DNA of 37,282 nt, from the IMG/VR virus record IMGVR_UViG_2778261667_000009; one strand, given 5' to 3'. Every line of letters begins with the position of its first letter. Positions within the stretch are counted from its first letter, which is position 1. The notes under the pieces were generated by a model. It saw only the letters and a program-made list of their open reading frames with translations. It had not been told where the DNA came from and did not search any database. Position numbers and translations under genes: made by a program. Shown piece after piece: positions 18,780-31,994 of this stretch. The stretch comes from a virus (taxonomy: Duplodnaviria > Heunggongvirae > Uroviricota > Caudoviricetes).

Positions 18780-19273
18780 CCCGGAAGCCCGGGGATCGTT
18801 ATCTGCAGCTGGTTAGCCAGGGAGTTAATCTCAGCGACCAACACTGGCTTCGTATAGCGCCATGCCGCCAGCCCTTGTCCACAGAAGCTCGCCATATCTT
18901 TTTTCTGATCAAACTCATGACACTTCATATTGAGCTGCGCACTTAAGCTGTTACGATGCTGAAGTTCTCCGGTGAAGTAGTCATCCAGGACTTTATAGGC
19001 TGCATATTTAAATCCGGGGTTTAGCCATGCTGCATAATCATAAGCAACAAACTTCCCGCCATATGTTCCACCGTGTACACCGCGCTCAGTAAAAACCACA
19101 GATTCGTGGTTTTTCTCCAGCTCGGCTAAGAACTCTTTGGTCTGCTTGTTTCGCAGGTAGTGGTACGGAGATTCAGATTCACTTTTACCACTGGCTTTCC
19201 ACATATCAGTGAGGCAGATCATGCCATCTTCACCGATACGAATTGGTTGATTGAAGAGGGTTAATGATTTCAT
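18776..19273 (-). CDS. KilA-N domain-containing protein
   Basis: 165 aa; the pattern IRIGEDGMICLTDMWKASGK...GGTYGGKFVAYDYAAWLNPGFKYAAYKVL resembles the KilA-N/Bro-N DNA-binding fold. Confidence 0.55.
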   Translation of the reverse strand: MKSLTLFNQPIRIGEDGMICLTDMWKASGKSESESPYHYLRNKQTKEFLAELEKNHESVVFTERGVHGGTYGGKFVAYDYAAWLNPGFKYAAYKVLDDYFTGELQHRNSLSAQLNMKCHEFDQKKDMASFCGQGLAAWRYTKPVLVAEINSLANQLQITIPGLPG

Positions 19274-19419
19274 AGCGTGTACCTACTCTTTGAAATGAAC
19301 CTTTGCCGCACAGGAAACCAGCCCACCGAGGCTCGCCAGCACTAACTGGTATCCTCAAAGGCCCATTCCAAAGGGGCAGGTTCGGTGTAAAAAACATGCG
19401 TTGCGGTACGCATTTATTG

Positions 19420-19443
19420 CAAAAAGCCCCGCATCGCGAGGCT
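19420..19443 (-). terminator. Intrinsic terminator downstream of Rz
   Basis: Minus-strand hairpin AGCCTCGCG-atg-CGGGGCT followed by TTTTT, about 30 nt after the Rz stop. Confidence 0.45.
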
Positions 19444-19474
19444 CATTAAATTGACTTTGTGATTTGCAAAAAAA

Positions 19475-19912
19475 TTATTTCAGGCATTGCGTCCTGATGT
19501 ACTCCTGCAGGTAGTTAACCTGCGCGGTTATCCTGTCGATTCCACTTCTGAGACGGTAATAATTGAGTTCAGCATCTGCTGTAAGTCTTGGGCTTTCTCC
19601 ATCGCCCATGCTGCTGGCTCCGGTCGTTGACTTTGCACAGGTGGCGGCGACTTGCAGGCGCTTACGACCAGCAGAAACATCATCACGGAGACTTTCGATA
19701 GTCGCGTTAGCATCAGCAAGCTCCTTTGTATATCTGGCATCGAGTTCAGCTACATTACGTTGACGTTTCTGCATGTCAGCGATAATGGATGCGGCCTTAT
19801 CGCGCTGTTCTTTGTAGACGATGGCGTTATCACGGTAATGATTAACAGCCCATGACAGGCAGGCGATGATACAAATAACCAGAGCGGAGATAATCGCAGT
19901 TACTCTGCTCAT
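19475..19912 (-). CDS. Rz: Spanin, inner-membrane subunit (Rz)
   Basis: 145 aa with N-terminal TM helix and coiled-coil periplasmic domain; lambda Rz-like. Confidence 0.8.
19528..19710 (-). CDS. Rz1: Spanin, outer-membrane lipoprotein subunit (Rz1), embedded in Rz
   Basis: +1 frame ORF inside Rz with a lipobox (LLVVSAC) and Pro-rich mature region ([16 protein letters not shown]). Confidence 0.65.
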
Positions 19913-20385
19913 ACCTCAATCTCACTGACCGTTCCGCCTGCTTCTTTGAATTTTGCAATCAGGCTGTCAACTTTATGCTCGAACTGACCATAACCAGCGC
20001 CCGGCAGTGAAGCCCATATATTACTGCAACGATCGATAGCCTGACGGATATCACCGCGATCAATCATCGGTAAAGCGCCACGCTCCTTAATCTGCTGCAG
20101 TGCAACAGCGTCCTGGCTTTTCGGAGAGAAGTCTTTCAGGCCAAGCTGCTTGCGGTAGGCATCCCACCAACGGGAAAGAAGCTGGTAACGTCCAGCTGCG
20201 GTTGATTTAAGTTGCGGGTTTAGCGTGACAAGTTTGCGAGGATGATCGGAGTAATCCGTGAATAGCTCACCACCTACAATAACGTCGTAGCCGTGATTGC
20301 GGGTTGGCTGTCTGCTGTTATCCGTTCCTTCTGACCACGCCAACATATCGAGGAAAGCTTTACGCTGAGGATTAAGATTTTGCAT
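19909..20385 (-). CDS. R: Endolysin, lambda R-type lytic transglycosylase
   Basis: 158 aa, [17 protein letters not shown]...[22 protein letters not shown]..., near-identical to lambda R as I remember it. Confidence 0.9.
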
Positions 20386-20689
20386 TTTTCACCCCTGTCA
20401 GTCGTTCCCAGAAGTACGTCAGTGCAACCGAACCCATCGCACCACTAATCCCCGCCGTCGCGAGAATCATGTAAATGCTGAATCCACTTTCGATACTGAT
20501 CAGGCCACCAATAACACCGGTGAATCCCGATACCACTATCTGAGCCAGAGCATTTATCCAGCTCCACGTTGCTTTACTCTGCTTCACATCTATCAGGTAG
20601 CGGACCAGACCGCCCCAACCTGCGATGATCAGCAAAACGAGCCAGAACGCTCCGGCAAGGCTCTCTTTTTCGTGCATATGAATAGCCAA
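20372..20689 (-). CDS. Holin (class I-like, three TM helices, dual-start motif)
   Basis: 105 aa; MAIHMHEK has two Mets separated by a Lys-containing spacer, followed by 3 predicted TM helices and a charged C-terminus; immediately upstream of the endolysin. Confidence 0.65.
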   Translation of the reverse strand: MAIHMHEKESLAGAFWLVLLIIAGWGGLVRYLIDVKQSKATWSWINALAQIVVSGFTGVIGGLISIESGFSIYMILATAGISGAMGSVALTYFWERLTGVKNAKS

Positions 20690-20790
20690 TGTTTCGCCGC
20701 CGACAAAAGGCCGGGACGTTAAATGTCAGAAATTAGGCTCACGGGGTAATTTAACGACAAAGCACGGAGTTGATGCTCCCCGCAAGCCTG

Positions 20791-20816
20791 GAATAAAAAA
20801 GCCAGCATGTAGCTGG
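20791..20816 (-). terminator. tR'-like intrinsic terminator of the late leader (6S-like RNA)
   Basis: Minus-strand hairpin GCCAGC-TACAT-GCTGGC followed by TTTTTTATT, ~190 nt downstream of the candidate late promoter. Confidence 0.55.
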
Positions 20817-20889
20817 CAACAGAGGGTTAAGCAATATCAACTCAACAGCTGAAGACACCCTGGCTGGGGTAGGTTGGAAGGTTACTCAC

Positions 20890-20931
20890 CGTCCAGAAAC
20901 AGAAAAGCCCAAGGCTTTAAACCTCGGGCTT
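20890..20931 (-). terminator. Promoter-proximal hairpin/terminator-like element in the late leader
   Basis: Minus-strand 10-bp stem AAGCCCGAGG/CCTTGGGCTT with one G-U pair, loop TTTAAAG, followed by TTCTGTTTCTGG. Confidence 0.35.
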
Positions 20932-20979
20932 GAATTTGGATTACTGCCAGTGCGTACACCATTGACAGAATATCAGATT

Positions 20980-21015
20980 TACATGAAATATATGCCTTTT
21001 AATCCAGTTTTGCAA
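20980..21015 (-). promoter_or_regulatory. Candidate late promoter PR' (-35 TTGCAA, 17-nt spacer, -10 TATATT)
   Basis: Minus-strand sigma70-like hexamers overlapping the Q stop; the predicted start gives a ~190-nt leader ending at the 20791-20816 terminator. Confidence 0.4.
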
Positions 21016-21688
21016 TACTTTGCTGTGAAAATGTCGCCTTTTGCTTTGAACGTGTTTTCGTTAAAAGCAATAAAGCTTGGCTATCAAGCTGTAGAAAAAT
21101 GTGCTTCATTGCAACCCAGCGTTCAGTAAATGTCTCAGACCAGTTTTTTGATGTCACTCCCACCAGTAATGCCAGCTCCTGGTATTCATAGGTCTTACGC
21201 CCTGCCAGCTCGTTCTTCACATCCTGTGCCGCCAGCCAGATCAACTTCTTTAAGCGTTCCAGTGTCTTACTGGCAATTTTTCTTGTACCTAACAGCGCCT
21301 TAAACTCGCTCCATGCCCACTGCGTTATGGCAACCTGATGCTCCCAGCGAATATTTTCACTGTAACTCCACAGCAACCACGCTTTCTGATGTTCATCGAG
21401 AGACAAAATCGCACGCCGCCACGAAGAGGTTGAAAACTCGACCAAACTGACCAGGGCGACAGATGAACCTTTTGCGTACGACTGTTTACCGGAAATCGGC
21501 GGATTATCCAGCGTAATCATCTTGCCAGTTACCACATCCAGAATGCGCGGCTTCTTTCGTTTGTATGTACCAGTATCAAATTGTGCATGCTCCAGCCAGG
21601 CTTCAAACTGGCCTTTCGTTGCTCCGCTCAAATCAGCGGTAGCCACCATGAGTTGCTCGCGGACATACTGTAAATATTGGGTATTCAT
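20999..21688 (-). CDS. Late-gene antiterminator, Q-like (large variant)
   Basis: 229 aa, directly upstream of the late promoter/6S-like leader and holin, and downstream of ylcG/rusA as quuD is in DLP12. Family inferred mainly from position. Confidence 0.55.
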   Translation of the reverse strand: MNTQYLQYVREQLMVATADLSGATKGQFEAWLEHAQFDTGTYKRKKPRILDVVTGKMITLDNPPISGKQSYAKGSSVALVSLVEFSTSSWRRAILSLDEHQKAWLLWSYSENIRWEHQVAITQWAWSEFKALLGTRKIASKTLERLKKLIWLAAQDVKNELAGRKTYEYQELALLVGVTSKNWSETFTERWVAMKHIFLQLDSQALLLLTKTRSKQKATFSQQSIAKLD

Positions 21689-21807
21689 GCGGCAGCTCCT
21701 TTCAGTGTTTTGGCGTAATTCCTCAGTATTCGGTAATCGGTCAAAACAGAACCGGGGAAACGATATAAGCGCAGGCGCATCCAGCAGTGGCGAAGAAGCT
21801 CTGCCAT
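21685..21807 (-). CDS. ylcG: YlcG-like small protein
   Basis: 40-aa ORF MAELLRHCWMRLRLYRFPGSVLTDYRILRNYAKTLKGAAA, resembling E. coli DLP12 YlcG; stop overlaps the Q start. Not in the supplied ORF track (under 60 aa). Confidence 0.5.
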   Translation of the reverse strand: MAELLRHCWMRLRLYRFPGSVLTDYRILRNYAKTLKGAAA

Positions 21808-21821
21808 ATAAAACTCAAACA

Positions 21822-22184
21822 TCATTCATCTCCCTGTTCAGTGATGGTCAGTTCCAGCTTTCCACCTTTGACAACCGGCATCTTCACAACGCGGTAATCA
21901 ACGACCTGAGCATCATCCAACCAGAAACCTGCTTTGGTGAGTGCGTCAAAAGCGGCCTTTTGTAGATTATCCAGGTCACGGCGACGGCGATCCGGCATGT
22001 GACACTCAATGCGGATTTTCACAGGAATAGCCAGGCCGATATCCAGCATTGCGTTTTTAATGATTCGGGCGACGTTTTCGCGGTATGCCTGCCCCTCTGC
22101 GCTGATGTGCGTGCGCCCGCGATTATGGCGGTAATAGCGATTATTGCCCGGCGGCCAGGGTAATGTGATATTGTAGGTATTCAC
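21822..22184 (-). CDS. rusA: Holliday junction resolvase RusA
   Basis: 120 aa, [51 protein letters not shown]...; near-identical to E. coli RusA as remembered. Confidence 0.9.
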
Positions 22185-22471
22185 GCCTTAATTACCCCCT
22201 CTTTCAGCCAGATAACCTGCGTTCTCGCCATACCTTCCAGCGCGCATTCTTTTGCATACTCAGCATCGACAAAATGTGTGCGGCGGTCGATTTCGTCGTG
22301 GCAGGCAGAACATGCAATGGTGGCAATCAGGTCTGGCGGTTTGATACCGGTACCGCACAATCCAGCCAGCCGGATATGTGCCAGTACAGACGTTTCAGGA
22401 TTGCCATTACATATGCCAGGGATTCTTACCTGGCATTCCCGACCACGCGCTGCTTTTCTCAAATCAGCCAT
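22181..22471 (-). CDS. ybcO: YbcO-like protein (DUF1364, putative nuclease)
   Basis: 96 aa from internal ATG ([35 protein letters not shown]...), matching DLP12 YbcO; the track's longer N-terminus is probably an upstream extension. Confidence 0.75.
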
Positions 22472-22634
22472 GATTCCTCCTTGCTGCCAGTCGCAACCAT
22501 TTTTTATCAACCAGGCTGGCGGTATATCCGAGCAGTGTTGGTATTTCGGATGGTTTCAGCTCAGGCTTACGCTTACGACGATTTGGTACTTTGTAGATGT
22601 GTCCGTTCATGACACGAATAAGCGGTGTAGCCAT
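22464..22634 (-). CDS. ninE: NinE-like small protein
   Basis: 56-aa [49 protein letters not shown]..., start overlaps the ybcN stop (TAATG); basic, in the ninE position. Not in the supplied ORF track. Confidence 0.5.
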   Translation of the reverse strand: MATPLIRVMNGHIYKVPNRRKRKPELKPSEIPTLLGYTASLVDKKWLRLAARRNHG

Positions 22635-23089
22635 TACGCCTCCTGCTTATCACGCAGCAGCTGGAACTCGCAGCTCTGCGGAATAGTCAGGTGGCAGCCA
22701 ATATTCATCGCCCAGGCTTCAACCTTACACAGGAAGACATACATCTCTCCGGTATCGAGGTCGGAGGTATGGCGTAACGACTGAATAGTGGTGATTTCAC
22801 CGGTTATGACATCAACCAGTTCTTTGGTTTCATAACCGAGGTATGTGTGTTTGAGAGCATCTTTTACCCATGCTGCAGTAGCGAACGATTTCCCCCTGCT
22901 TATGAGGTATTCACTGATTTCGCTGTACCACATGTGGCTAAGTGCATTCTGGGAAAGACTGCGTCTCTCGCGCCACGGTTTAAGCACCATGCGAAAGCAT
23001 TTTCCGTCCTCCAGATAAGGCTGGATCTGCTGGCCGATAGCGGTGAAGTTCCCGCGATGTAATTTGATGCCGTCTTGTGGGAGGTTCAC
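22634..23089 (-). CDS. ybcN: NinB/YbcN-family protein
   Basis: 151 aa, same length as DLP12 YbcN, with the NinB-like SQNALSHMW pattern; GGAGGTG RBS upstream. Confidence 0.75.
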
Positions 23090-23212
23090 GCTTCACCTCC
23101 GCAGAGGTCAAACGTTGGATACAAAGAACCACAGGTGCATTTCTGCATCTGTGAAGGGAGAAGAGAGTTTAGATTGTATGTGCGCATAAACGTCCCCGTT
23201 TAGCGCAGAAGT

Positions 23213-23245
23213 CACCGGAGTTGTTCAGGCTCCGGTGTTTTTATT
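23213..23245 (+). terminator. Orphan plus-strand intrinsic terminator (possible end of a small RNA)
   Basis: Perfect 8-bp stem CACCGGAG/CTCCGGTG, 9-nt loop, followed by TTTTTATT; no plus-strand gene upstream. Confidence 0.4.
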
Positions 23246-23671
23246 GTGACAGCTTGATAATTAAAAATCAATAAGCCTTCAAAGGACATAAACAAGCTAA
23301 TAGCTTCTACTTTAGTTTATACGATATTACCTTAAGAGAATTAACATAATCAACGAAACCACTCATATATTTATCTAAGATTCCTTTATTACACAGAACA
23401 TATTACGACATAATTCCAATATACATTTTTTGTAAAATAACTGCAGAGATACCTAGCGCTATGCTGTTAACTTGCAGTAATATTCAACATATCAATCTTT
23501 TATGGGAGCTTAAACCACTTCTTATTTTTTCATCTAAGTAATATATTGCAAATGCATATACCTGGATAATCAGAACAAGAGATTCCAATCACCATAACTT
23601 CACATTAAAAAAATATTAATGTACACTTAATTATGTGTGCATACTTTAACAATACATAATACATTTTATTT

Positions 23672-24202
23672 TTACGATACATGGATTTTAAAAGCTGTAA
23701 AAGACCACTTCCTCAGAAGTGGCTTGCAGACTGCCCCTATAAGCAAGCGACTGTCATATTCTGCGTTCGACTCTAGCAACTCCGGTAACTGTTCGTGTGC
23801 TTGCTCCATCTTTTCCTGATGTCTAACATACCGCCTGATAATTTTTTCGGTCGTGCCTACTATATCGACAAAGTAACCTCGTGAACCCAAATTGTTTCCC
23901 CATAACTTCGTCCTGATATGCGGGAATAGATTGTAGAGCCTGATTTCGCTGCAACCTTTTAGGTTTTCTCATCAGAGTAGATATTGAGATTTATGACGGC
24001 ACGATTACTACAAAATGCAATGATCTGGCTGTACACTTAAATCCGGAACCTCGCAATCTTTTATTCCACGCAGAATACAAATGGTTCTGTACAGCTCCTT
24101 GTCCAATTTATCTCTCAGAATCCTAAAGCGGTACTTTGGCGCCCAGACTGTGTGATATTTGCAACGCCAATATACATATGATGAACTTCTGTAAAACCCC
24201 AT
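23672..24202 (-). pseudogene. tnpA: IS200/IS605-family transposase (TnpA, HuH/Y1) pseudogene, frameshifted
   Basis: N-terminal piece (24008-24202) carries W-x-CKYH-x-V-x-APKYR and a truncated HuH (PDHCIL then stop); C-terminal piece (23672-23890, other frame) carries RGYFVDIVG...YVRHQEKMEQ, matching the IS200 TnpA C-terminus. Confidence 0.6.
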
Positions 24203-24319
24203 GTCAGTTTTTCTCCTTTTACTTGTGGTGAGTAAGCAGAGATATTCAGATATGGGAATTCTTCAGGTTATAGCCTTACAGGAGCAATCACCAGCCCCCT
24301 TTGCGGTGGTTTAGAGATA

Positions 24320-24385
24320 ACAATTAAATATTAACCATAAAAATTATACCGCAAGATATAATTTTTATGGTTAATATTTAATTGT
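24320..24385. repeat. 29-bp perfect inverted repeat (hairpin) with 8-nt loop, probable IS200-type subterminal hairpin
   Basis: ACAATTAAATATTAACCATAAAAATTATA / ccgcaaga / TATAATTTTTATGGTTAATATTTAATTGT; arms are exact reverse complements, ~120 bp upstream of the tnpA remnant start. Confidence 0.8.
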
Positions 24386-24616
24386 ATTCCACATAGTGCT
24401 TACTAATCAACCAAAAACACAACATACTGAACACTTCGCTTAACTCCACCTATTGCCGTAGATGCATTAATTGAAGTAGAATATTTTCCAGGAGATGTAA
24501 TCTCAGATAAAAGTAAATTACGCACATTGACTCTTAAATAGGTTTATTTCTAAAAATAAAACTCCATATATTTATTCTTAACATAAAACCAGAAAGATGC
24601 ATAACAGGATGAAGCC

Positions 24617-24982
24617 ATGGATAAAAAATACACAGATAAATTAGAAGCTTGCGAGTACTTGCAAAATGTTGACATTTGGCTTGATAATGGAAATGTTGAC
24701 ATGTTTAAAGTATCAGATATTTTAAACAATCTGTTGAAATTAGGTGATTTTGAGAAATTTGACCATACACTTTCACTTTTAAAAGCTGAAAGCTTTGCAG
24801 AGAAAATAAAGTTTCGTCTTTCACGAGTTGAAAGTCAACGGGATAGTATATTACACGTTATCAGAGAAGGTGATAAGAATAAAAACCTTAGAAAAATAAT
24901 ACTAAAATCATATGACACAAAAAAAAACAGAAATAAAATCACTATTCAATATATTCTCCAGAGAAAGCGGGCTATATTTTAG
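24617..24982 (+). CDS. N-terminal fragment of a split glycosyltransferase-like gene
   Basis: 121-aa ORF with AGGA RBS; runs through the A9 tract at 24919-24927 and stops 55 nt later. Deleting one A fuses it in frame to the downstream ORF. Confidence 0.4.
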   Translation: MDKKYTDKLEACEYLQNVDIWLDNGNVDMFKVSDILNNLLKLGDFEKFDHTLSLLKAESFAEKIKFRLSRVESQRDSILHVIREGDKNKNLRKIILKSYDTKKNRNKITIQYILQRKRAIF

Positions 24983-25937
24983 GAATAACCATGGAAATCA
25001 CTACAGTTATTTTGAAGATGATTTCTTAGATTACAGCAATGCTGTAAAAAACACACTTAGAGACAAAGGTTTTGCGAAAAAACTTTTACAGCACAATCAA
25101 GAAAAATTTAGAATTCTCGATGATGCGATAGTTCATACTTTCAATCATAATTTCTATGCCATTTCAGATAAAAATGGTTATTACGACTCAACAAATGCAG
25201 CCCGTCTGGCAAAACTTAGCCATGTTAATTATATTAATAACGACAATGAAATAAGATATATTGATAAGGCTATTTTTTTGCCCATAGACCATGCATGCAA
25301 TAACTATTATCATGCTCTTAGTGAATGTTTCGGAGGATTGAAATTTATAACAGAATTACCTGATGACATTCCTATAGTCTTTACGGAAGACAGATTTAAT
25401 GTATTGGATTTTATTGCATCGCGCCTATGTATAGACCGCAAACGTTTTATTTCTATACAAACACTTGCTAATACTCGAATTAAAAAGGCACTACAATTAT
25501 ATCCATATAGTTTTAACTGGAGTGAAGATATTTTTCATTTTTTTAAAAAAATATCATACCCACAAACAACAGACTCTAAAATATATATTTCAAGGAGAAA
25601 GTCAAGCCGTGGCCCATTAAATGAATTTGAAGTTGAAAATGAGCTTAAAGAATTAGGTTTTGATATACTATACGCTGAAGACCTTGACTTTGCGCAACAG
25701 GTTTCAATTTTCTCAAATGCAAGCATCCTTATTGGCCCTCATGGCGCAGGCCTCACCAACATTCTTTTTATGCCTAAGAATAGCACCCTTATCGAAATAT
25801 TTAACAGTGAATATATCCAACCTGATTTCTATCTAAGATCTCGCCATAATAACATGAAATATGCATGTACCATTCAATTTAATAATACCTTCAATATCGA
25901 AGAGATAAAAGAAATCATAGAAAGGTGTCAAGAATAA
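24912..25937 (+). CDS. Glycosyltransferase, GT61/DUF563-like (C-terminal portion of the split gene)
   Basis: 341 aa; C-terminal region ...SRRKSSRGPLNEFEVENELKELGFDILYAEDLDFAQQVSIFSNASILIGPHGAGLTNILFMPKNSTLIEIF matches the DUF563/GT61 signature as remembered. No SD before its ATG; strongly AT-rich by eye. Confidence 0.5.
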   Translation: MTQKKTEIKSLFNIFSRESGLYFRNNHGNHYSYFEDDFLDYSNAVKNTLRDKGFAKKLLQHNQEKFRILDDAIVHTFNHNFYAISDKNGYYDSTNAARLAKLSHVNYINNDNEIRYIDKAIFLPIDHACNNYYHALSECFGGLKFITELPDDIPIVFTEDRFNVLDFIASRLCIDRKRFISIQTLANTRIKKALQLYPYSFNWSEDIFHFFKKISYPQTTDSKIYISRRKSSRGPLNEFEVENELKELGFDILYAEDLDFAQQVSIFSNASILIGPHGAGLTNILFMPKNSTLIEIFNSEYIQPDFYLRSRHNNMKYACTIQFNNTFNIEEIKEIIERCQE

Positions 25938-26577
25938 GTTCTCAATACTCTTTTCATTAGAGCTTGTATATTAGCCAGTTACATTAAATCAATGAAATTT
26001 ATACCATCTAACAAAAAAGTTGGGTGGTATACCTCAACAACTTGATTTATAAATAAATTTAACAAAAAACCAGCATTAACTTAACGGTAATATCTCTAAG
26101 TGAATAATTTATCATATATGTTTCTCTCCTTTGATATATCCATAGCCAGCGTAGCTGTTCATTGCTCTCATTACTAATTTTCTCAGGTTTCTCATCGTGC
26201 CCCTCCACACACTAAAGGGTATGACCTGTTCGGCTGATGGATTCCTCAACTTACTTACACTTGTAGAGTACATAAACCTAGAGCTAAAGAGCAGATCTCA
26301 TAACTGTATCAATACTCTCCATCAGTTTAAAAAAACTCCCCACCACGAATAATATTATCATCGAAAAGTCATTATATCTTGTGTTCCTAAGCATGTGCCG
26401 TATATATCTTCAAGAAAGCCGCAGCATAACTCATCAAGCACTGCCAAATCCGGTCTCATTTGACGTAAATTTAATCACACATTATACTTTTCCCCACAGT
26501 TTTATTAATTGTTACAGCATCTAATCTCATGCTCTTAAACTACCATTTACCGTCACGACCCGTTTCATCGCGGCACT

Positions 26578-26748
26578 CTACCGACACTCCTCAAAAATCA
26601 GGTTCGTGCTCACCTTTTCTTCCTGTGCCATTTTAGCCGCAGCCTGATTTATACTGGTTACTGTTGCGCCTGTTACCGCAGCAACGTCCTGCGCACAGAA
26701 GTTCTTATGAGTCCCCAGGTAATGAATAATTGCCTCTTTGACCGTCAT
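26578..26748 (-). pseudogene. ren: ren remnant (internal deletion and premature stop)
   Basis: 56-aa ORF MTVKEAIIHYLGTHKNFCAQDVAAVTGATVTSINQAAAKMAQEEKVSTNLIFEECR matches lambda Ren at both ends but lacks ~25 central residues and stops early; Ren-like codons continue after the stop. ATG overlaps the P stop (ATGA). Confidence 0.55.
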
Positions 26749-27446
26749 ACCCTTGCTCCTTTCAGCCCAAACTTAGCTTTGATTTCTGCGATCTTCGCCA
26801 GAGCCTGTGCACGATTTAGAGGTCTACCGCCCATGACAGGGATTTGTTTTACTGGTTCAGGTATAGCCTCACCACGGTTAATTCGCGCTGTCATACAGGA
26901 CAGTTCATCGGCAGCCTTGCGCCGTAATTCCGCATCAGTAAGCGCATTGGCCCGCATGTTCTGGTACAGGTTGGTAACCAGCCAGTAGTGCGCGTTTGAT
27001 TTCCACGGATAAGACTCTGCATCTGGATACAGGCCACGCTTCCGACAATACTCATAGACCATATCAACCAGCTCGCTGACGTTTGGCAGCCCGACGTTAA
27101 CGGATGCTTCTTCCCGGCACCAGGCGACAAACTGCCCGGGTGATGGCAGGAATGGTCGATTCTGCCGACGGGCTACGCGCATTCCAGCGTTAACCTGTTC
27201 CATCGTGGTGATCCCATTTTCCCGGAAAGCCAGAACCCACTGGCGGCGGATTTCGTTCAGTTCATTCTGGTCCCGGTTAGCCAGGCTCGCCGAGAAAGTT
27301 GCCAGTAACTGGCTGAACACACCATTGATAATCTGCGCTACCTGCTGTACCTGCGGCTTTTCGTCGTACTGTTCCGGCATGTTATTGGCGATCCGGCGCA
27401 TCTGCTCACGGTCAAAATTAACCATCTGTGCGGCGATGTTTTTCAT
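26745..27446 (-). CDS. P: Replication protein P (DnaB helicase loader)
   Basis: 233 aa, essentially identical to lambda P as remembered (MKNIAAQMVNFDREQMRRIANNMPEQYDEKPQVQQVAQ...). Confidence 0.9.
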   Translation of the reverse strand: MKNIAAQMVNFDREQMRRIANNMPEQYDEKPQVQQVAQIINGVFSQLLATFSASLANRDQNELNEIRRQWVLAFRENGITTMEQVNAGMRVARRQNRPFLPSPGQFVAWCREEASVNVGLPNVSELVDMVYEYCRKRGLYPDAESYPWKSNAHYWLVTNLYQNMRANALTDAELRRKAADELSCMTARINRGEAIPEPVKQIPVMGGRPLNRAQALAKIAEIKAKFGLKGARV

Positions 27447-28462
27447 AGCTCCACCCCGTAAATCCAGTCAGTGTTCGTCAGGTCGAGTTTTGGTTTTCCG
27501 GCTGTCACGCCTGCCTGTTGCTTGTTTCGGTTGATTTCGAGCTGGGTCCACTTGTCGCGGAGTTTGGCCGGACTTAGCACGTTACCGGACCAGAAGTTGT
27601 CCTGGCATGCCCAGCGGAACAGCACGCACATGTCGCGGTGGTTACGTCCGTCACGTTCACGCATCAGGCGGATATCGTTAGCCCACCCTGCAAAATTCGG
27701 TTTTCTGGCTGATGGCGCGATGGTCTTCACCATGTCAAACATCCACTCTGCGGCGGTCAGGTCTTCTGCTGTCCCCCACTTGCTGCCGCTCTGAATTGCA
27801 GCATCTGGTTTCACCACAGGAAGATCGTTTTCTGGTTGGTCAGAGGATTCGCCAGAATTCTCGGACGAAAAAGATTTTATATTGTCTTTTGTTAGTTTGT
27901 CTTTTGTGTTTACCTTATTCGGGTAAACGCCTTTACCTGATTTGGGTAAACTTTTCTTACCTGATTCAGGTAAATTTACCTCTTTCAGGTAAACTTTATT
28001 TTTCTTACCTGATTCGGGTAATGTTGACCATTCACTGACCACATTATTAATACCGATATTCCGCCCGCTCTGAATCAAAATCCCACGCTTTACCAGAACA
28101 CTTTTTGCAGCAGAACACTTGTGCGGCAATATCCCGGTCAATTCGGACAGTTGCTCGTTGCTCACCCAATCCAGTTTTTTATTAAAGCCATATGTTTTGC
28201 GCATGACAGCCAGGAAGACCAGAAGCTGGTGCTGTGTTAATCCGGCCAGCATCACAGCTTCCAGCAACTCATTTGCAATGCGCGTATAACCATCATCGAG
28301 ATCTGCCACGCGCGGCTCCTTTTGTGCCGCATCCGGCACTGGAAAATTGAATATCTCAGCAGTGTTTGCCATAATTCCTCCCGCAATGAGTGTGTTACGA
28401 TTTGCACCTGAAAGTCGGTTCTGTTCCAGCAGACCGGCTTTCGCCATTTCTGAACCTGTCAT
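27443..28462 (-). CDS. O: Replication initiator O-like protein
   Basis: 339 aa; N-terminal region (ADLDDGYTRIANELLEA...LLVFLAVMRKTYGFNK) resembles lambda O; iteron array lies within the gene; stop overlaps the P start. Confidence 0.8.
   Translation of the reverse strand: MTGSEMAKAGLLEQNRLSGANRNTLIAGGIMANTAEIFNFPVPDAAQKEPRVADLDDGYTRIANELLEAVMLAGLTQHQLLVFLAVMRKTYGFNKKLDWVSNEQLSELTGILPHKCSAAKSVLVKRGILIQSGRNIGINNVVSEWSTLPESGKKNKVYLKEVNLPESGKKSLPKSGKGVYPNKVNTKDKLTKDNIKSFSSENSGESSDQPENDLPVVKPDAAIQSGSKWGTAEDLTAAEWMFDMVKTIAPSARKPNFAGWANDIRLMRERDGRNHRDMCVLFRWACQDNFWSGNVLSPAKLRDKWTQLEINRNKQQAGVTAGKPKLDLTNTDWIYGVEL
27860..28021. repeat. Replication origin: five 17-bp dyad iterons (TTACC-N6-GGTAA, one G-to-A variant per right arm in two copies) plus adjacent AT-rich tract
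   Basis: Iterons at 27910-27926, 27933-27949, 27957-27973, 27976-27992 and 28005-28021, with an AT-rich stretch at ~27860-27909 on the O-downstream side, as in lambda ori. Confidence 0.65.
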
Positions 28463-29004
28463 ATCGCCCCCAGCATGGTAGTAACCATCGCCATCAATGG
28501 ACCAGCCAGATCTGGGTCCACACGAAACATCGACACAATACCTTCACTAATTTCCTTCAGTTTCTGGTGGCGTGGTGCGTTGAGAATGACAGCCTGTTTT
28601 GCCTCACTGAGTTCCTTTTCCATTTCAGCCAACCTAGCCATGAAGCTATCCTGCTCAACCAGGTAACCGCGATATTCCAGCGGTAGTACCGCCAGAATTG
28701 CCGGGGTCAGTTCACGCACGTTATTTCGGTATTTTTCAGAATCGAATTTGTTATCGAGGAAGCGGAACAGCTTCTGGCGTGCACGGCTGACATCATCAGG
28801 GAAATCGATGGTGCCGCCGCCCTGCTCCCGATACTCATTCACAATGAGTGCGGCAACAACATCCTGATTATCTGCAGCCGACCAGGCGCGGACGGCATCA
28901 CGGATTTTTTCGTGGCCTGGAGCTTGTTTTGTTTGAGAACGATTTATCACCGCAGTCGGGCTAAATCCGCTAGTCTGTTGGTATGTAAGTGGTTGCATAG
29001 TCAT
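28459..29004 (-). CDS. YdaT-family (CII-position) protein
   Basis: 181 aa; EYREQGGG...TPAILAVLPLEYR resembles Rac prophage YdaT; sits between cro-like gene and O. Confidence 0.55.
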   Translation of the reverse strand: MTMQPLTYQQTSGFSPTAVINRSQTKQAPGHEKIRDAVRAWSAADNQDVVAALIVNEYREQGGGTIDFPDDVSRARQKLFRFLDNKFDSEKYRNNVRELTPAILAVLPLEYRGYLVEQDSFMARLAEMEKELSEAKQAVILNAPRHQKLKEISEGIVSMFRVDPDLAGPLMAMVTTMLGAI

Positions 29005-29028
29005 TGCCTTATCAGTTAACGCCGCAGT

Positions 29029-29256
29029 TTAGGCGGCAGAATTACTCGCGTTAAACAATGGTGCGAGGTCGGGACGAATATCTGCTGGTTTAATCTTTCC
29101 ACCAGTGGCTGAGACAATTTTCATTACATAGCGGGCATCAATTCCGCCACCGTGTAGCCAACGCCAAACAGTGGGTTGGGCTACACCGCATAGATCTGCC
29201 AGTCGTTTTTGACTACCTGTAATACTGATTGCGAGTTGAATGGTTTGATTTGTCAT
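29029..29256 (-). CDS. Cro-like HTH regulator (YdaS/Cro family)
   Basis: 75 aa from ATG 29256 (AGGA upstream); HTH LADLCGVAQPTVWRWL; divergent from cI. Confidence 0.6.
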   Translation of the reverse strand: MTNQTIQLAISITGSQKRLADLCGVAQPTVWRWLHGGGIDARYVMKIVSATGGKIKPADIRPDLAPLFNASNSAA

Positions 29257-29366
29257 TATCAATTCCTATTGGTATTGCAATGAACAAATAATAGCAATGC
29301 GTATTAATCATAACAATAGCAAAACGTGTTTTGACCATCAATACGCAAGCGTATAAATTAAAACTT
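29257..29366. promoter_or_regulatory. OR/PR/PRM region: repeated ATAGCAAT/ATTGCAAT operator motifs with divergent promoters
   Basis: Minus-strand PR-like -35 TTGTTA (29316-29311), 17-nt spacer, -10 TATTAT (29293-29288). Plus-strand PRM-like -35 TTGACC (29331-29336) and -10 TATAAAT (29352-29358) ending ~8 nt before the cI ATG. Three AATAGCAAT-type motifs overlap these. Confidence 0.45.
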
Positions 29367-30059
29367 ATGAAAAAAGAAACTCTTGCTGATCGCTTAAACC
29401 TAGCGATGGAACAATCTGGAATGTCTCAAGGCGCTCTTGCAAAGGCGTCTGGCGTAGCTCAACCCACAATCTGGAGACTGACAAGCGGCAACGCGCGCGG
29501 CTCAACAAAAATTGTTGAAATAGCTAATGCATTGGGTGTTCGAACAGAGTGGCTCTCATCAGGCATAGGCCCGATGAGAAATGACGGTCAACAATTAGGG
29601 AAGCCTACTGCCAACCATCCCAAATACTTCAAGATTGACGTTCTTGATATAGAAGTGAGTGCCGGGCCGGGAGTCATCAACCGTGAGTTTGTAGAAGTTC
29701 TACGCTCGGTTGAGTACTCATTTGACGATGCTCGTCACATGTTCGATGGCAGGAAGGCAGAAAATATCCGCATCATTAACGTACGCGGTGACAGCATGTC
29801 AGGAACGATCGAACCAGGTGATCTTCTGTTCGTTGATATCACTGTTAAATCTTTCGACGGTGATGGTATCTATGCGTTTCTGTATGACGACACCGCCCAT
29901 GTAAAGCGCCTGCAAATGATGAAGGATAAGCTGCTGGTTATCTCTGATAACAAGAGCTACTCACCGTGGGACCCGATCGAGAAAGACGAGATGAACCGCG
30001 TGTTCATCTTCGGGAAAGTCATCGGGAGCATGCCGCAGACATATAGAAAGCATGGGTAG
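29367..30059 (+). CDS. cI: CI-type prophage repressor (HTH plus S24 LexA-like autopeptidase domain)
   Basis: 230 aa from ATG 29367 (track's longer form uses TTG); N-terminal HTH (MSQGALAKASGVAQPTIWRL), C-terminal GDSM and Lys-containing S24-like domain. Confidence 0.8.
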   Translation: MKKETLADRLNLAMEQSGMSQGALAKASGVAQPTIWRLTSGNARGSTKIVEIANALGVRTEWLSSGIGPMRNDGQQLGKPTANHPKYFKIDVLDIEVSAGPGVINREFVEVLRSVEYSFDDARHMFDGRKAENIRIINVRGDSMSGTIEPGDLLFVDITVKSFDGDGIYAFLYDDTAHVKRLQMMKDKLLVISDNKSYSPWDPIEKDEMNRVFIFGKVIGSMPQTYRKHG

Positions 30060-30188
30060 AAATCAGAACAAAATTATGCACTTCGCTTTTCAGCTTACTG
30101 TAGTAAGGCAATAAATTAGGCTTGACGTTAGCTATCAGGTGCACAACAATAATTGTTGAATAATAGGTTTTTTTAACTAGGTGATAAC

Positions 30189-31328
30189 ATGGCAGCGGTT
30201 GAATTTCAATTGTCTAGGAAGATGATTGATTGGATAGCAAATTCTCAAGGAGTTTCTATCGAAACTCTTGCTGACCAAGTCATGCCCAAAAAGATTAATA
30301 AATTTCTTAACGGAGTGGTAAGTAAATCCGCAGCAGAAAAACTGGCAAAAATTGGAGGAATCCCTTTCGGTTTTTTATTTCTTGAAACGCCACCAACTCC
30401 AGCCAAACCCAAGATCCCTGACTTAAGGCAAGCTATAAATAGCCGTGAGTTAGGAAAAGATTTTTTTGATGTTTACTATGATATAGAATATAAACTTGAG
30501 TGGTACAAAGACTATTTAAGAGAAAATGGTAATGATGATCCACTCGATTTTATTGGTAAATTTAAATTTAATAGAAAATTAAATTATAAGGTTGTTGCTA
30601 CAGACATAGCAAACACAATACATTTTGATATACAAAAAGAGATAAAAAATGTCACTTTTGAGAGCTATTTTTCTAAAGTGGCAAAACTAATAGAAGACAC
30701 TGGCGTATTAGTTTTCAAGAATGGTGTTGTGGGTAATAATAATAAAAGAAAACTTGACACGCGAGAGTTTCGTGGTTTCTGTATATCTGATAGCGTTGCT
30801 CCGATCATTTTTGTAAATAGCTCGGACGCGTTATCTGCGCAGGTATTTACATTATTTCATGAGGTGGCTCATCTTTGGCTTGGAGTCGATGGAGTCTCTG
30901 GGTGGGACACAGAAAAAAACATAGAATCTTTTTGTAATAAAGTTGCTGCTGAAATCTTAATGCCTGATAATCTCTTCAAATCTTTCTGGCTTAATGCATC
31001 CAGCGATAATAATTATTATCGAGTAAAAGAGGTTTCTAAGTTATTTAAGGTTAGTGATTTCGCTTGTGCAATCAAAGCGTTACAATTAGATTTGATAGAA
31101 AGAAACACTTTGGAGATAATTAAAGATCAAGCTTACAATAAGCCCAAAAAAGAATCTAATGGTGGTTCTTTCTTTAACACATTACCTGTTCGTAACAGTC
31201 CAAAACTTACGAATATAATAATTTCCAAAGCAATGTCTCAACAATTACCATTAAGGGAAGCAGGCGTACTGCTAAATGTAAAAGCAGATACAGTTGTTGA
31301 ATTTTATAAAAAACGAGAATCTCTATGA
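30189..31328 (+). CDS. HTH-fused ImmA/IrrE-family (M78, COG2856-like) metallopeptidase-like protein
   Basis: 379 aa; N-terminal HTH-like segment, central RGFCISDSVAPIIFVNSSD...VFTLFHEVAHLWLG matching the M78 HExxH signature, plus ~120-aa C-terminal extension. AGGTGA RBS; AT-rich by eye. Confidence 0.55.
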   Translation: MAAVEFQLSRKMIDWIANSQGVSIETLADQVMPKKINKFLNGVVSKSAAEKLAKIGGIPFGFLFLETPPTPAKPKIPDLRQAINSRELGKDFFDVYYDIEYKLEWYKDYLRENGNDDPLDFIGKFKFNRKLNYKVVATDIANTIHFDIQKEIKNVTFESYFSKVAKLIEDTGVLVFKNGVVGNNNKRKLDTREFRGFCISDSVAPIIFVNSSDALSAQVFTLFHEVAHLWLGVDGVSGWDTEKNIESFCNKVAAEILMPDNLFKSFWLNASSDNNYYRVKEVSKLFKVSDFACAIKALQLDLIERNTLEIIKDQAYNKPKKESNGGSFFNTLPVRNSPKLTNIIISKAMSQQLPLREAGVLLNVKADTVVEFYKKRESL

Positions 31329-31837
31329 TTCATAATGGAAAATTCTTAATTGATAGTAATGTCTTCATAGAGGCAAAAAACTTTGCATATAACTTCAATT
31401 ATTGCAAAATATTTTGGGATTTTCTTCTCGCTTTACACATGAATGGTCTGATTTATAGCATTAATGCTGTAAAAAAAGAACTATGTGCAAAAGATGATCC
31501 ATTGTGTAAATGGATTAAAGAAGAGTTACCATCATCATTCTTCGAAGATGAGCATAGTTCAATAGAAAATTATGCAAAGTTAATAAATTGGTCAACTAAA
31601 TTAGATGTTACCGAAAAGGCAAAGTTTGACTTTGCAAGCCATGAAAAAGCAGATGCTTTTTTAATAGCCCATGCGATGACACATGGATATACTATTATTA
31701 CCCATGAGAAACCATCCGGTGGCAAACCTAAAAAAAGAATAATGATCCCGGATGCTGCTGCTTCTCACGGCGTTAAGACATTAACACTATATGAATTTCT
31801 TCCAAGATACGCTAGTCATAATTTTTCTTTGAAATAA
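31325..31837 (+). CDS. PIN-like (DUF4411-like) putative nuclease, partner of the upstream peptidase
   Basis: 170 aa; N-terminus KFLIDSNVFIEAKN is PIN-like with a first acidic residue; start overlaps the upstream stop (ATGA). Family assignment from memory. Confidence 0.5.
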   Translation: MIHNGKFLIDSNVFIEAKNFAYNFNYCKIFWDFLLALHMNGLIYSINAVKKELCAKDDPLCKWIKEELPSSFFEDEHSSIENYAKLINWSTKLDVTEKAKFDFASHEKADAFLIAHAMTHGYTIITHEKPSGGKPKKRIMIPDAAASHGVKTLTLYEFLPRYASHNFSLK

Positions 31838-31845
31838 AACGTCCC

Positions 31846-31873
31846 GGCCACCGTGCCGGGTTTTCTTTTGTCC
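31846..31873 (+). terminator. Intrinsic terminator ending the cI-peptidase-PIN operon
   Basis: Hairpin CCCGGC-cacc/gt-GCCGGG followed by TTTTCTTTTG, 9 nt after the PIN-like gene stop. Confidence 0.6.
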
Positions 31874-31994
31874 CCTCCCCTCATCACACAAACCGTTCGA
31901 AAAACCACCACAACCTCCCTTCAGTTATCGCTATGCGATGCAAGTCACAAAATTAATTCTTTTTGCTATCAAACAGTTAATATCAAAACACATC

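Follow-up and report, generated by a model that had tools for sequence, protein, structure and literature searches.

An AT-rich cargo island holds the relic of an insertion sequence

The window (the whole stretch of DNA analysed, 37,282 nt) contains an AT-rich cargo island in which the relic of an insertion sequence, a palindrome and a GT61 glycosyltransferase gene lie together (Table 1). Homology to lambdoid phages and E. coli prophages ends at about 23240 and about 26620, and the GC content of the island is 32–38%, versus about 50% in the flanks. Relic and palindrome occur together in each of the 12 contigs that contain the island, and none of the 12 showed an IS-free allele (look-up of the 341-aa ORF, homologue search and P0001/P0002 look-ups). 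The predicted IS-free junction of the island reads ...GGTTAATATTTAAT/AGCTTTTAAAATCC (slashes mark junctions throughout). The reconstructed IS-free site of 780 nt gave no match in the E. coli complete genomes searched in distant mode, and the phage collection contained no match to the region. Citrobacter-type homologues with 70% identity occur in another context, with unrelated upstream regions that lack a palindrome; a tblastn search of the island detected no remnant of the 441-aa gene that adjoins GT61 in the Citrobacter-type prophages (L059–L061).

Table 1 Features of the cargo island and of the relic, in window coordinates
Feature	Position	Strand	Description
AT-rich cargo island	23241–26620	.	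Between ninB and ren/P, in a lambdoid prophage with a P22-type tailspike gene
IS200-group insertion sequence relic (IS200/IS605 family, tnpA-only)	23697–24322	-	626 bp, TGTTATCTC...GGTCTTTTAC
Right-end subterminal hairpin	23705–23722	-	CCACTTC-TGAG-GAAGTGG, then TCTTTTAC (23704–23697), the right end of the element
tnpA pseudogene (Y1/HUH transposase)	23768–24202	-	144 codons in intact relatives
ORF, N-terminal tnpA fragment	24202 to 24008	-	64 aa, MGFYRSS...QPDHCIL, then stop; Pfam Y1_Tnp PF01797, E = 1.4e-9
ORF	23890 to 23672	-	Carries ...GSRGYFVDIVG...
Eroded left-end subterminal hairpin	24291–24309	-	CCACCGCAAAGGGGGCTGG versus CCACCTCCTAGGGAGGTGG in active copies
Perfect palindrome	24320–24385	.	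Arms 24320–24348 and 24357–24385, 29 bp, 8-nt loop
GT61 glycosyltransferase gene	24617–25937	+	Frameshifted in the window, inside the cargo island

Identity and ends of the element

Intact IS200/IS605-family elements that are 84–87% identical to the relic region occur in 26 complete E. coli genomes and 582 plasmid records; RefSeq gives them only the label 'IS200/IS605 family transposase' (WP_038989254.1). These intact relatives are 629–631 bp long and encode a 144-aa TnpA; against the intact 629-bp E. coli copy, the relic shows 87% identity over 625 aligned nt. The N-terminal tnpA fragment scores 38.6 bits against Y1_Tnp (cut-off 23), the intact 87%-identical relative matches the same family with E = 6.8e-41, and the TnpA of the intact relative matches PDB entries 2EC2, 2F4F, 2XM3 and 2A6M (E = 1e-26 to 5e-20). 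The Pfam match and the identity to intact copies bear out the original prediction of an IS200-type element, the kind that has tnpA as its only gene, for a Y1/HUH transposase of the single-strand 'peel-and-paste' type.

The ends were defined by two E. coli empty sites, according to which the element in E. coli is TGTTATCC...GGTCTTTTAC (~630 bp). At the ompC-apbE site, the empty sequence of K-12 is ...CCCTTTTTTCAT/TGTTTTCAG and the filled sequence is ...TTTCAT/TGTTATCC...CTTTTAC/TGTTTTCAG. When TGTTATCC...TTTTAC was taken out, the resulting yehD-yehC junction gave a 100% match over 300 nt in a single piece, and in 4880 of 5426 genomes the match covered at least 80% of the junction sequence. At both empty sites, the intact relatives show no target-site duplication, and the left end starts at TGT. 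The left junction of the window copy is TAAT/, and homology to all related copies begins inside the IS-proximal arm of the palindrome (...TAAT/TGTTATC). With the left end mapped at TGT, all but 3 bp of the palindrome lie outside the element. The two empty sites fix the ends at 23697 and 24322, which replaces the span of 23672–24385 that had been proposed for the element.

The two ends of the relic, TGTTATC... and ...CTTTTAC, do not form terminal inverted repeats, and imperfect palindromes are located subterminally at both, the right one intact and the left one eroded yet recognisable. The left-end hairpin is small and GC-rich, occupies element nts 14–32, differs from the intact copy at 5 of 19 positions and is polymorphic between the two island alleles; its DNA folds no better than shuffled sequences (z = -0.4), versus z = -3.3 in the intact copy. 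The right-end hairpin has a 7-bp perfect stem, and the DNA fold of the enclosing 44-nt segment reaches z = -3.5. This stem was cut from 8 to 7 bp by a one-base deletion; relative to CCACCTCC/GGAGGTGG, one C-G pair has become T-A, with the pairing of the remaining stem preserved.

The tnpA gene is decayed but keeps its tyrosine motif

The lesions of the window tnpA were placed by codon-level alignment to L001 tnpA. A 1-bp deletion at codon 62 affects the second His of the HUH motif (DHVHLVV to DH-CIL, about 24020), a premature TAA lies at codon 71 (within 23985–24000), a 1-bp insertion follows at codon 79 (23969), and the native stop is lost by a TAG to TCG change (about 23770). Two ORF fragments together span tnpA, as had been noted; they were described as lying in different frames and are in fact in the same frame, with a 17-codon out-of-frame stretch between them. 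The motif SRGYFVD is kept and aligns to TRSYFVS of the IS200-type transposases 2EC2 and 2F4F, and RGYF is conserved in every intact relative. The suggestion that RGYF stands in place of the expected tyrosine motif is therefore mistaken, as SRGYFVD is the conserved catalytic-tyrosine motif itself. An active transposase has both an intact HUH motif and the tyrosine; in the window copy, the HUH motif is broken and the tyrosine motif is present.

The window tnpA has dN = 0.098, dS = 0.312 and dN/dS = 0.315, versus 0.009–0.03 in the intact relatives, and 39 of the 344 sites that are invariant across 15 relatives are changed. The coding region of tnpA is under relaxed selection, and the window copy is a non-functional IS200-group member by descent. 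Since the reading frame, one HUH histidine and the left-end hairpin have been lost, the element can no longer move, which upholds its earlier description as an immobile relic.

A perfect palindrome adjoins the left end

The palindrome is the exact inverted repeat that the original prediction described: its 29-nt arms are 100% complementary, with 0 of 29 pairs broken. Within the flanking DNA alone, it comprises 26 bp (24323–24348 and 24357–24382), and the outermost 3 bp of the proximal arm (24320–24322) are the first 3 nt of the element (TGT/ACA). Viewed on the minus strand, a 20-bp stem is followed by the T-rich tail TATTTAAT, which directly abuts the element. The composition is almost pure A/T, with 2–3 G-C pairs. 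The centroid RNA fold of 24320–24385 has -34.9 kcal/mol (z = -9.0) and the DNA fold -25 kcal/mol (z = -11 to -12.7), and none of 200 shuffled sequences folded as well. It is by far the longest inverted repeat of the window, the next best being imperfect pairs of 15–27 nt. The arm sequence occurs twice in the window, both times in the palindrome, and 0 of 100 shuffles gave a match.

The hairpin does not recur in the genome, viral and metagenome collections. A search with a 21-nt arm sequence gave 4 matches in genome_contigs (185,579 species genomes), 0 in viral_contigs (IMG/VR) and 11 loci in metagenome_contigs (JGI metagenomes), and all of these matches were single-arm chance matches, none of them palindromic. 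No further copy exists in the window with up to 3 mismatches allowed, and no direct repeat surrounds the palindrome in the reconstructed empty site. In Rfam, the hairpin resembled only plant and animal miRNA-precursor models below threshold (best 34.8 bits versus gathering scores of at least 100), and no IS200-related RNA matched. Perfect 29-bp repeats lying 8 nt apart do resemble the back-to-back terminal repeats of another tiny mobile element, collapsed as in a MITE or an excision footprint. However, the absence of a flanking direct repeat, of a second copy in the window or in the four collections searched, and of any family match beyond miRNA-hairpin noise makes this origin barely credible.

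The palindrome had been taken for the structured left end of the element itself, surviving the decay of the transposase. In canonical IS200, a bidirectional terminator hairpin occupies nts 12–34, within the left end (PMC4513863), and the palindrome touches the element and lies 118 bp upstream of the tnpA ATG at 24202, counted to its nearest edge, close to the original estimate of about 120 bp. On the other hand, the boundary set by the two empty sites admits just 3 bp of the palindrome into the element, and every relative is homologous from TGTTATC onwards. No related IS copy carries the palindrome, which the original prediction had itself named as grounds for refutation, and a separate hairpin at 24309–24291 is the one that corresponds to that of IS200. 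The boundary mapping contradicts the view that the palindrome is the left end of the element, which we consider very improbable; it is most likely a flanking landing site.

Relatives insert behind hairpins

Insertion sites were compared for relatives down to 63% amino-acid identity, comprising 10 independent chromosomal or plasmid sites (E. coli, Salmonella, E. albertii and E. fergusonii) and about 9 IMG/VR prophage sites. At each of these ~19 sites, a different hairpin with a T-run precedes the left end, mostly ending 7–9 nt away; the exceptions are L034, where the distance is 17 nt, and L029 and L042, where the hairpin is weak. The left flank ends in T-N-A/G-T at 10 of 10 independent enterobacterial sites and in TTAC instead at the IMG/VR site L031. 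The mean MFE of the 50-nt flanks is -15.9 kcal/mol on the left versus -6.0 kcal/mol on the right, and 9 of 10 left flanks fold with -13 kcal/mol or less, versus 12.6% of the 2665 TNRT sites in the window (binomial p ~7e-8). At the two E. coli empty sites, the hairpins pre-exist as terminators of host genes. Members of the clade, of which strain CUPF09 carries 9 copies, are usually co-oriented with the gene upstream and lie right behind its intrinsic terminator. Enrichment of terminator-like sequences directly upstream of insertion sequences has been reported, with IS200/IS605 showing the strongest effect (ISME J 2026, PMC13548323).

The window flank fits this rule, with the 20-bp stem, then TATTTAAT, then TGTTATC. 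The other target hairpins have GC-rich stems of 5–13 bp, several of which pair A- and T-tracts, whereas the window palindrome is 26–29 bp long and almost GC-free, and its tail is not a clean T-run. Since none of the related copies carries this palindrome (0 found) and nearly all of the ~19 sites have a different hairpin, the palindrome is most likely the landing site. As no IS-free copy of the island was found, its pre-existence rests on analogy with the other sites, from which we infer that the palindrome is older than the insertion.

Origin and upkeep of the palindrome

We think it probable that the now dead IS200-group copy landed behind a pre-existing palindrome, which has been kept perfect by correction, selection or both. 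In the proposed course of events, members of the clade would insert behind a T-rich run that follows a DNA hairpin and ends in T-N-A/G-T, with the left end coming to lie 7–9 nt downstream of the hairpin. The window copy would have landed likewise in an E. coli lambdoid prophage, behind the AT-rich palindrome of its ren-ninB cargo island. The element has since lost its transposase frame, one HUH histidine and its left-end hairpin, and the palindrome would have stayed perfect while the element gathered about 0.09 neutral substitutions per site. At ~0.09 substitutions per site, the probability that 58 nt remain unchanged is ~exp(-5.2), or ~0.005, assuming inactivation after insertion and equal mutation rates, and the chance of the arms reaching 3 bp into the element is about 1/64. 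A flawless palindrome next to ~9% neutral decay, with 3 outer bp that derive from the end of the element, speaks for selection or self-templated correction.

Quasipalindrome template-switch mutagenesis in E. coli (Ripley model) turns imperfect palindromes perfect, and a thyA hotspot of this process in E. coli was reportedly described by Lovett and colleagues. Such a template switch could copy the 3 end nucleotides of the element into the distal arm, a suggestion drawn from the perfection and the 3-bp extension only. The perfection may thus be due to this correction, to selection of the palindrome as a weak bidirectional terminator or insulator, or to both. The second island allele carries an identical palindrome (66/66); this identity was rejected as evidence of selection, since the alleles are 1–2% diverged and ~1 difference is expected in 66 nt, so that it is not significant.

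The same facts could also arise if the palindrome had formed after the insertion, by inverted duplication (snap-back or template switch) beside the left end, and had never been a target hairpin. The flawless state beside a heavily decayed element, the arm that takes in the first 3 nt of the element and the restriction of the palindrome to this locus agree with such an origin. However, this would be the lone hairpin-less insertion among about 20 sites, both island alleles share the palindrome unchanged, and the perfecting of an older imperfect palindrome explains the same facts with the targeting rule intact. We therefore regard an origin after insertion as unlikely.

A further explanation, which we hold to be possible though doubtful, is that selection maintains the palindrome as a working bidirectional intrinsic terminator or insulator of the island, placed between the divergent GT61 promoter and the early-right transcript of the phage (minus strand). 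Purifying selection alone would then account for its perfection, and insertion behind terminators would simply be harmless. The layout of an A-rich arm, a stem and a T-rich arm is that of bidirectional terminators, and several target hairpins are alike; a loose consensus terminator scan flagged the palindrome, on the minus strand only (20 pairs, 3 G-C, tail TATTTAAT). It lies between ren/P and ninB, where the minus-strand genes are co-oriented with the flagged strand and where phage lambda has its tR2 terminator, and both alleles conserve it. The anatomy is nevertheless poor for an intrinsic terminator, for which a GC-rich stem of 5–14 bp, a short loop and an uninterrupted U-tract immediately behind the stem are expected: the tail has 5 T in 8 with no T-run of 4 or more, the stem has only 2–3 G-C pairs, and A/T pairs form its base beside the tail. 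In addition, neither strand has a gene that ends shortly upstream of the palindrome, and selection leaves the 3-bp extension into the element unexplained. The original idea that the hairpin persists as a putative structural or terminator element, here as flanking DNA, is indirectly encouraged by its perfection.

Returning to insertion behind a pre-existing palindrome, we tentatively suggest that the clade may pick its sites by hairpin structure on single-stranded DNA and a short T-rich tail ending in TNAT, rather than by termination function or selection after the fact. Hairpin-templated repair could then have kept the palindrome perfect and transferred 3 nt from the end of the element to the distal arm, which would be a trace of quasipalindrome correction in nature.

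If structure is what is recognised, the window copy would be an informative outlier, with the canonical distance behind a 26-bp, nearly GC-free hairpin that makes a poor terminator.

Comparison with known systems

The element resembles IS200 of Salmonella and IS1541 of Yersinia, with a single small Y1/HUH tnpA in an element of ~0.6–0.7 kb. Further common traits are low activity, many relic copies, a structured 5' UTR before tnpA and a GC-rich left-end hairpin that lies within the first ~35 nt (PMC4513863). In contrast to IS200, which is 707 bp long, members of this clade have 629–631 bp (626 bp in the window) and a TnpA of 144 aa. The window copy further differs from IS200 as a pseudogene with no match to an IS200-associated RNA of Rfam, and its long AT-rich palindrome lies outside the element, whereas the terminator hairpin of IS200 lies inside.

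IS200/IS605 elements have no terminal inverted repeats or direct repeats and carry subterminal hairpins, with guide sequences 5' of the hairpin foot (PMC3333891). As in IS608 of H. pylori and ISDra2 of D. radiodurans, whose solved structures are matched by the TnpA of the intact relative (E = 5e-20 to 5e-21), subterminal hairpins are present at both ends, no target duplication is made, and insertion occurs 3' of a short oligonucleotide, T-N-A/G-T here and TTAC for IS608. The right end of the intact relatives has AAAG 5' of the hairpin foot and finishes in TTAC, which may correspond to the guide and cleavage-site pair of IS608 (PMC3333891). The right end of the window copy keeps TTAC and has CAAG in place of AAAG. 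Unlike IS608 and ISDra2, the clade has no tnpB, and its target is also tied to an upstream hairpin and T-run.

A parallel in target choice is offered by group IIC (class C) bacterial introns, mobile elements that home 3' of terminator-type stem-loops. These introns are retroelements with a ribozyme and a reverse transcriptase and have no sequence or mechanistic kinship with the present clade. Group IIC (class C) introns are mentioned in PMC7923331.

The ~19 sites follow the pattern of PMC13548323, in which a terminator-like hairpin and a T-tract lie just upstream in the same orientation. The pattern was found there by statistics and was interpreted as a way of damping the expression of the transposase. 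Beyond that study, our two empty sites show that the hairpins pre-exist as terminators of host genes, with the junction mapped to the base. The long AT-rich palindrome of the window is atypical of the terminator-like flanks described there.

Implications

Overall, the locus is a dead insertion sequence of a known kind in a prophage cargo island, and it is largely ordinary. For annotation, the relic belongs at 23697–24322, with the palindrome drawn outside it, and 'RGYF' should not be taken as loss of the catalytic tyrosine. The two empty sites give base-resolution support to a rule so far reported only statistically, that the enterobacterial IS200 clade lands 7–9 nt behind terminator-type hairpins at T-N-A/G-T. 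A place behind a terminator is a 'safe harbour' in which tnpA is also protected from read-through. Recognition of the hairpin as a structure, if it occurs, would be an extra target determinant for the IS608/ISDra2 model. With its flawless palindrome next to a decayed element, the locus is a small testable case of a hairpin that is either functional or self-correcting.

Identity and boundaries of the element

The minus-strand ORF 24202→24008 (MGFYRSS...QPDHCIL*) matches Pfam Y1_Tnp (E = 1.4e-9), and GSRGYFVDIVG is encoded in the minus-strand ORF 23890→23672. The DNA is 84–87% identical to intact elements annotated as "IS200/IS605 family transposase", which occur in 26 complete E. coli genomes and 582 plasmid records (Escherichia, Salmonella, Klebsiella, Shigella and others). 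The identification as an IS200-type tnpA relic was right. The cargo island of the prophage holds an inactive copy from an already known group of insertion sequences.

The ends were mapped by aligning the window copy with three E. coli copies and then inspecting 10 independent insertion sites. The sequence common to the copies runs from TGTTATCC(C)TAAACCACC... through ...GGTGGTCTTTTAC. Between ompC and apbE, IS-free K-12 reads ...GGGCCCTTTTTTCAT/TGTTTTCAGCG (slash, junction), and the filled site of strain CUPF09 reads ...TTTCAT/TGTTATCC...CTTTTAC/TGTTTTCAGCG. At yehD-yehC, exactly TGTTATCC...CTTTTAC was deleted in silico; the rebuilt junction had unbroken 300-nt matches of 100% identity in other genomes, and 4880 of 5426 genomes matched 80% or more of it. 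The two empty sites and the shared ends define an element of 629–631 bp, inserted after T-N-A/G-T without target duplication. With these ends, the element contributes just the outermost 3 bp of the palindrome (24320–24322, minus-strand TGT); the other 26 bp of the proximal arm, the loop and the entire distal arm are flanking DNA.

In the clade of the element, as represented by intact relatives (L001, L002, L010–L013, L027–L038), the right end carries a terminal TTAC and an AAAG just 5' of the hairpin foot, a pair corresponding to the guide/cleavage-site pair at the left end of IS608. At its left-end guide position this clade has TAAA, with target T-N-A-T; the right-end guide position of the window reads CAAG.

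Features of the relic, the palindrome and their surroundings
Feature	Position	Strand	Description
Element relic	24322→23697	minus	626 bp
tnpA lesion	codon 62, second His of HUH		1-bp deletion; DHVHLVV to DH-CIL
tnpA lesion	codon 71		TAA
tnpA lesion	codon 79		1-bp insertion, frame restored
tnpA lesion	native stop		lost, TAG to TCG
Left-end subterminal hairpin	24309–24291		
Right-end hairpin	23722–23705		perfect 7-bp stem retained
Palindrome arms	24320–24348 / 24357–24385		29 nt each, 8-nt spacing
AT-rich island	~23240–~26620		relic, palindrome, GT61 glycosyltransferase gene
GT61 gene (PF04577)	24617–25937	plus	poly-A run at 24911–24919
Terminator-like hairpin	23213–23247	plus	junction of phage backbone and island
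Inverted-repeat cluster	27932–27992		within replication O-like gene
Peptidase_M78/DUF4411 pair	30189–31837	plus	379 aa and 170 aa; 34–36% GC

Decay of the element

Called against the intact 144-codon tnpA, the window gene has four lesions. The family chemistry depends on HUH and on a single catalytic tyrosine carried by helix alpha-D (PMC3597680; PMC3333891). The original prediction that RGYF replaces the Tyr-containing motif was wrong: the conserved ...HFWSRGYF... reads ...NLGSRGYF... in the window, the tyrosine motif itself is intact and lines up with TRSYFVS in the IS200-type transposase structures 2EC2 and 2F4F, and RGYF is kept in all intact relatives. The dN/dS ratio of 0.315 between the window copy and its nearest intact copy, versus 0.009–0.03 among intact relatives, shows relaxed selection on the window tnpA. 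Of 344 sites invariant across 15 relatives, 39 are altered, and by a two-phase calculation from the dN/dS data, the neutral change accumulated after inactivation is roughly 0.09 substitutions per site. The left-end hairpin differs from CCACCTCCTAGGGAGGTGG at 5/19 positions, and its fold (z = −0.4, not above chance) compares with z = −3.3 in the intact copy. Judged from these sequence features, the predicted immobile relic is borne out.

Fragments of tnpA of ~190 bp (window 24054–24245) on ~100-kb chicken E. coli plasmids are 92% identical to the window copy, whereas the closest full-length element found reaches 86%. The variant from which the window element descends may therefore survive solely as fragments.

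The prophage island and its alleles

The window represents an E. coli prophage of lambdoid type in which a P22-type tailspike gene is also present. Lambdoid-phage homology ends at the two island borders (~23240 on the ninB side, ~26620 on the ren/P side), and the ren-ninB interval of other phages holds different cargo. Positions 18912–31937 (the 13,026 bp compared) are 100% identical to contig PTSF01000001.1 of GCA_002965845.1, and a Logan contig is 100% identical over 4,571 bp. A second island allele, 97.7% identical and present in at least 10 further E. coli contigs, shares the relic and its lesions, which dates the decay to before the allele split. Among the differences between the alleles are an indel of 30 bp at 23397 and, at 24300–24302 within the eroded left-end hairpin, a TTT→CCC change plus 3 nt. 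With so little divergence between the alleles, the 66/66 nt identity of the second-allele palindrome carries no statistical significance. A search for an IS-free allele among contigs carrying the island found none. In contig L050, IS1 and aceK replace the expected ren/P side.

Within the island, the "121-aa" and "341-aa" ORFs are parts of a single GT61 gene, interrupted where a poly-A run has 9 A, one too many; the intact 439-aa allele (P0001), with 8 A, is present in at least 24 E. coli contigs. Homologues (70% nucleotide, 73% protein identity) adjoin P22-type tailspike genes in Citrobacter-type prophages. The gene may be a slip-strand, phase-variable lysogenic-conversion (surface-sugar) gene. 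The Peptidase_M78/DUF4411 pair, adjoining a cI-like repressor, is a second low-GC cargo module of the prophage. The overlapping imperfect inverted repeats of the TTACCTGATTCAGGTAAA type at 27932–27992 are probably origin iterons.

The palindrome lies outside the element

The exact 29-bp inverted repeat was confirmed, with 100% complementary arms. It is by a wide margin the longest inverted repeat of the window and the sole perfect one of that size; no second arm copy was found elsewhere in the window with up to 3 mismatches allowed, and 0/100 shuffled controls gave any arm match. It folds far better than shuffled sequences, as RNA (z = −9.0) and as DNA (z = −11 to −12.7).

Its assignment to the element did not hold: the palindrome is found in none of the related copies, and this absence and the mapped boundary rule it out as the element's own structured left end. 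IS200 has a bidirectional terminator hairpin within its left end, at nts 12–34 (PMC4513863), whose counterpart here is a small GC-rich hairpin at element nts 14–32, not the AT-rich palindrome. A search for recurrence, made with a 21-nt arm in 185,579 species (one genome each), IMG/VR and JGI metagenomes, returned single-arm chance matches only, none of them palindromic. The reconstructed IS-free site had no match in E. coli complete genomes in distant mode.

Hairpins precede the left ends of related copies

A hairpin lies before the left end at all 10 enterobacterial sites and about 9 prophage sites (protein identity down to 63%), each different from that of the window. In most, the stem is GC-rich, a T-run comes after it, and the distance to the junction is 7–9 nt; the hairpin of L034 is 17 nt away, and those of L029 and L042 are weak. 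The hairpin is usually the terminator of a co-oriented upstream gene (ompC, reiD, yehD, yfeX or trhN), and one further copy sits downstream of an integrase gene. Mean fold energies are −15.9 kcal/mol for left flanks and −6.0 for right flanks; 9/10 left flanks reach −13 kcal/mol or lower, versus 12.6% of 2665 control TNRT sites (binomial p ~7e-8). The two empty sites show that such hairpins are already in the host before insertion. A 2026 survey reported the same association statistically: terminator-like sequences are enriched directly upstream of insertion sequences, with the strongest excess for IS200/IS605 (PMC13548323).

On the minus strand, the window has a 20-bp stem (TTAACC...GGTTAA), a T-rich tail TATTTAAT and then TGTTATC, an arrangement that conforms to this hairpin-then-left-end rule. 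The palindrome is flanking DNA, most likely the feature that drew the insertion to this site, or one next to which the insertion could persist.

At the junction of phage backbone and island, a GC-rich terminator-like hairpin CACCGGAGTTGTTCAGGCTCCGGTG is followed by TTTTTATTGT. Its "hairpin + TTTTTAT/TGT" signature matches IS target sites, but on the opposite strand, and no IS200 left-end resemblance follows it.

The flawless pairing of the palindrome

None of the 29 pairs is broken, beside ~9% neutral decay and a left-end hairpin that lost 5/19 positions. If the palindrome had drifted at the element's rate, the probability of 58 unchanged bases would be ~0.005. It also reaches exactly 3 bp into the element end (ACA...TGT), with a chance of ~1/64. 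Selection for a functional hairpin would explain the flawless pairing. In a loose intrinsic-terminator scan, the palindrome passes on the minus strand only, with 2–3 G-C pairs and no clean U-run, a predicted structure that makes a poor intrinsic terminator; neither strand of the window has a gene end immediately before it. The other candidate, self-templated correction of a quasipalindrome by template switching, would explain both the pairing and the 3-bp extension. Such correction is well known in E. coli. The interest of the finding rests on the hairpin-targeting rule at base resolution and on this oddly perfect palindrome.
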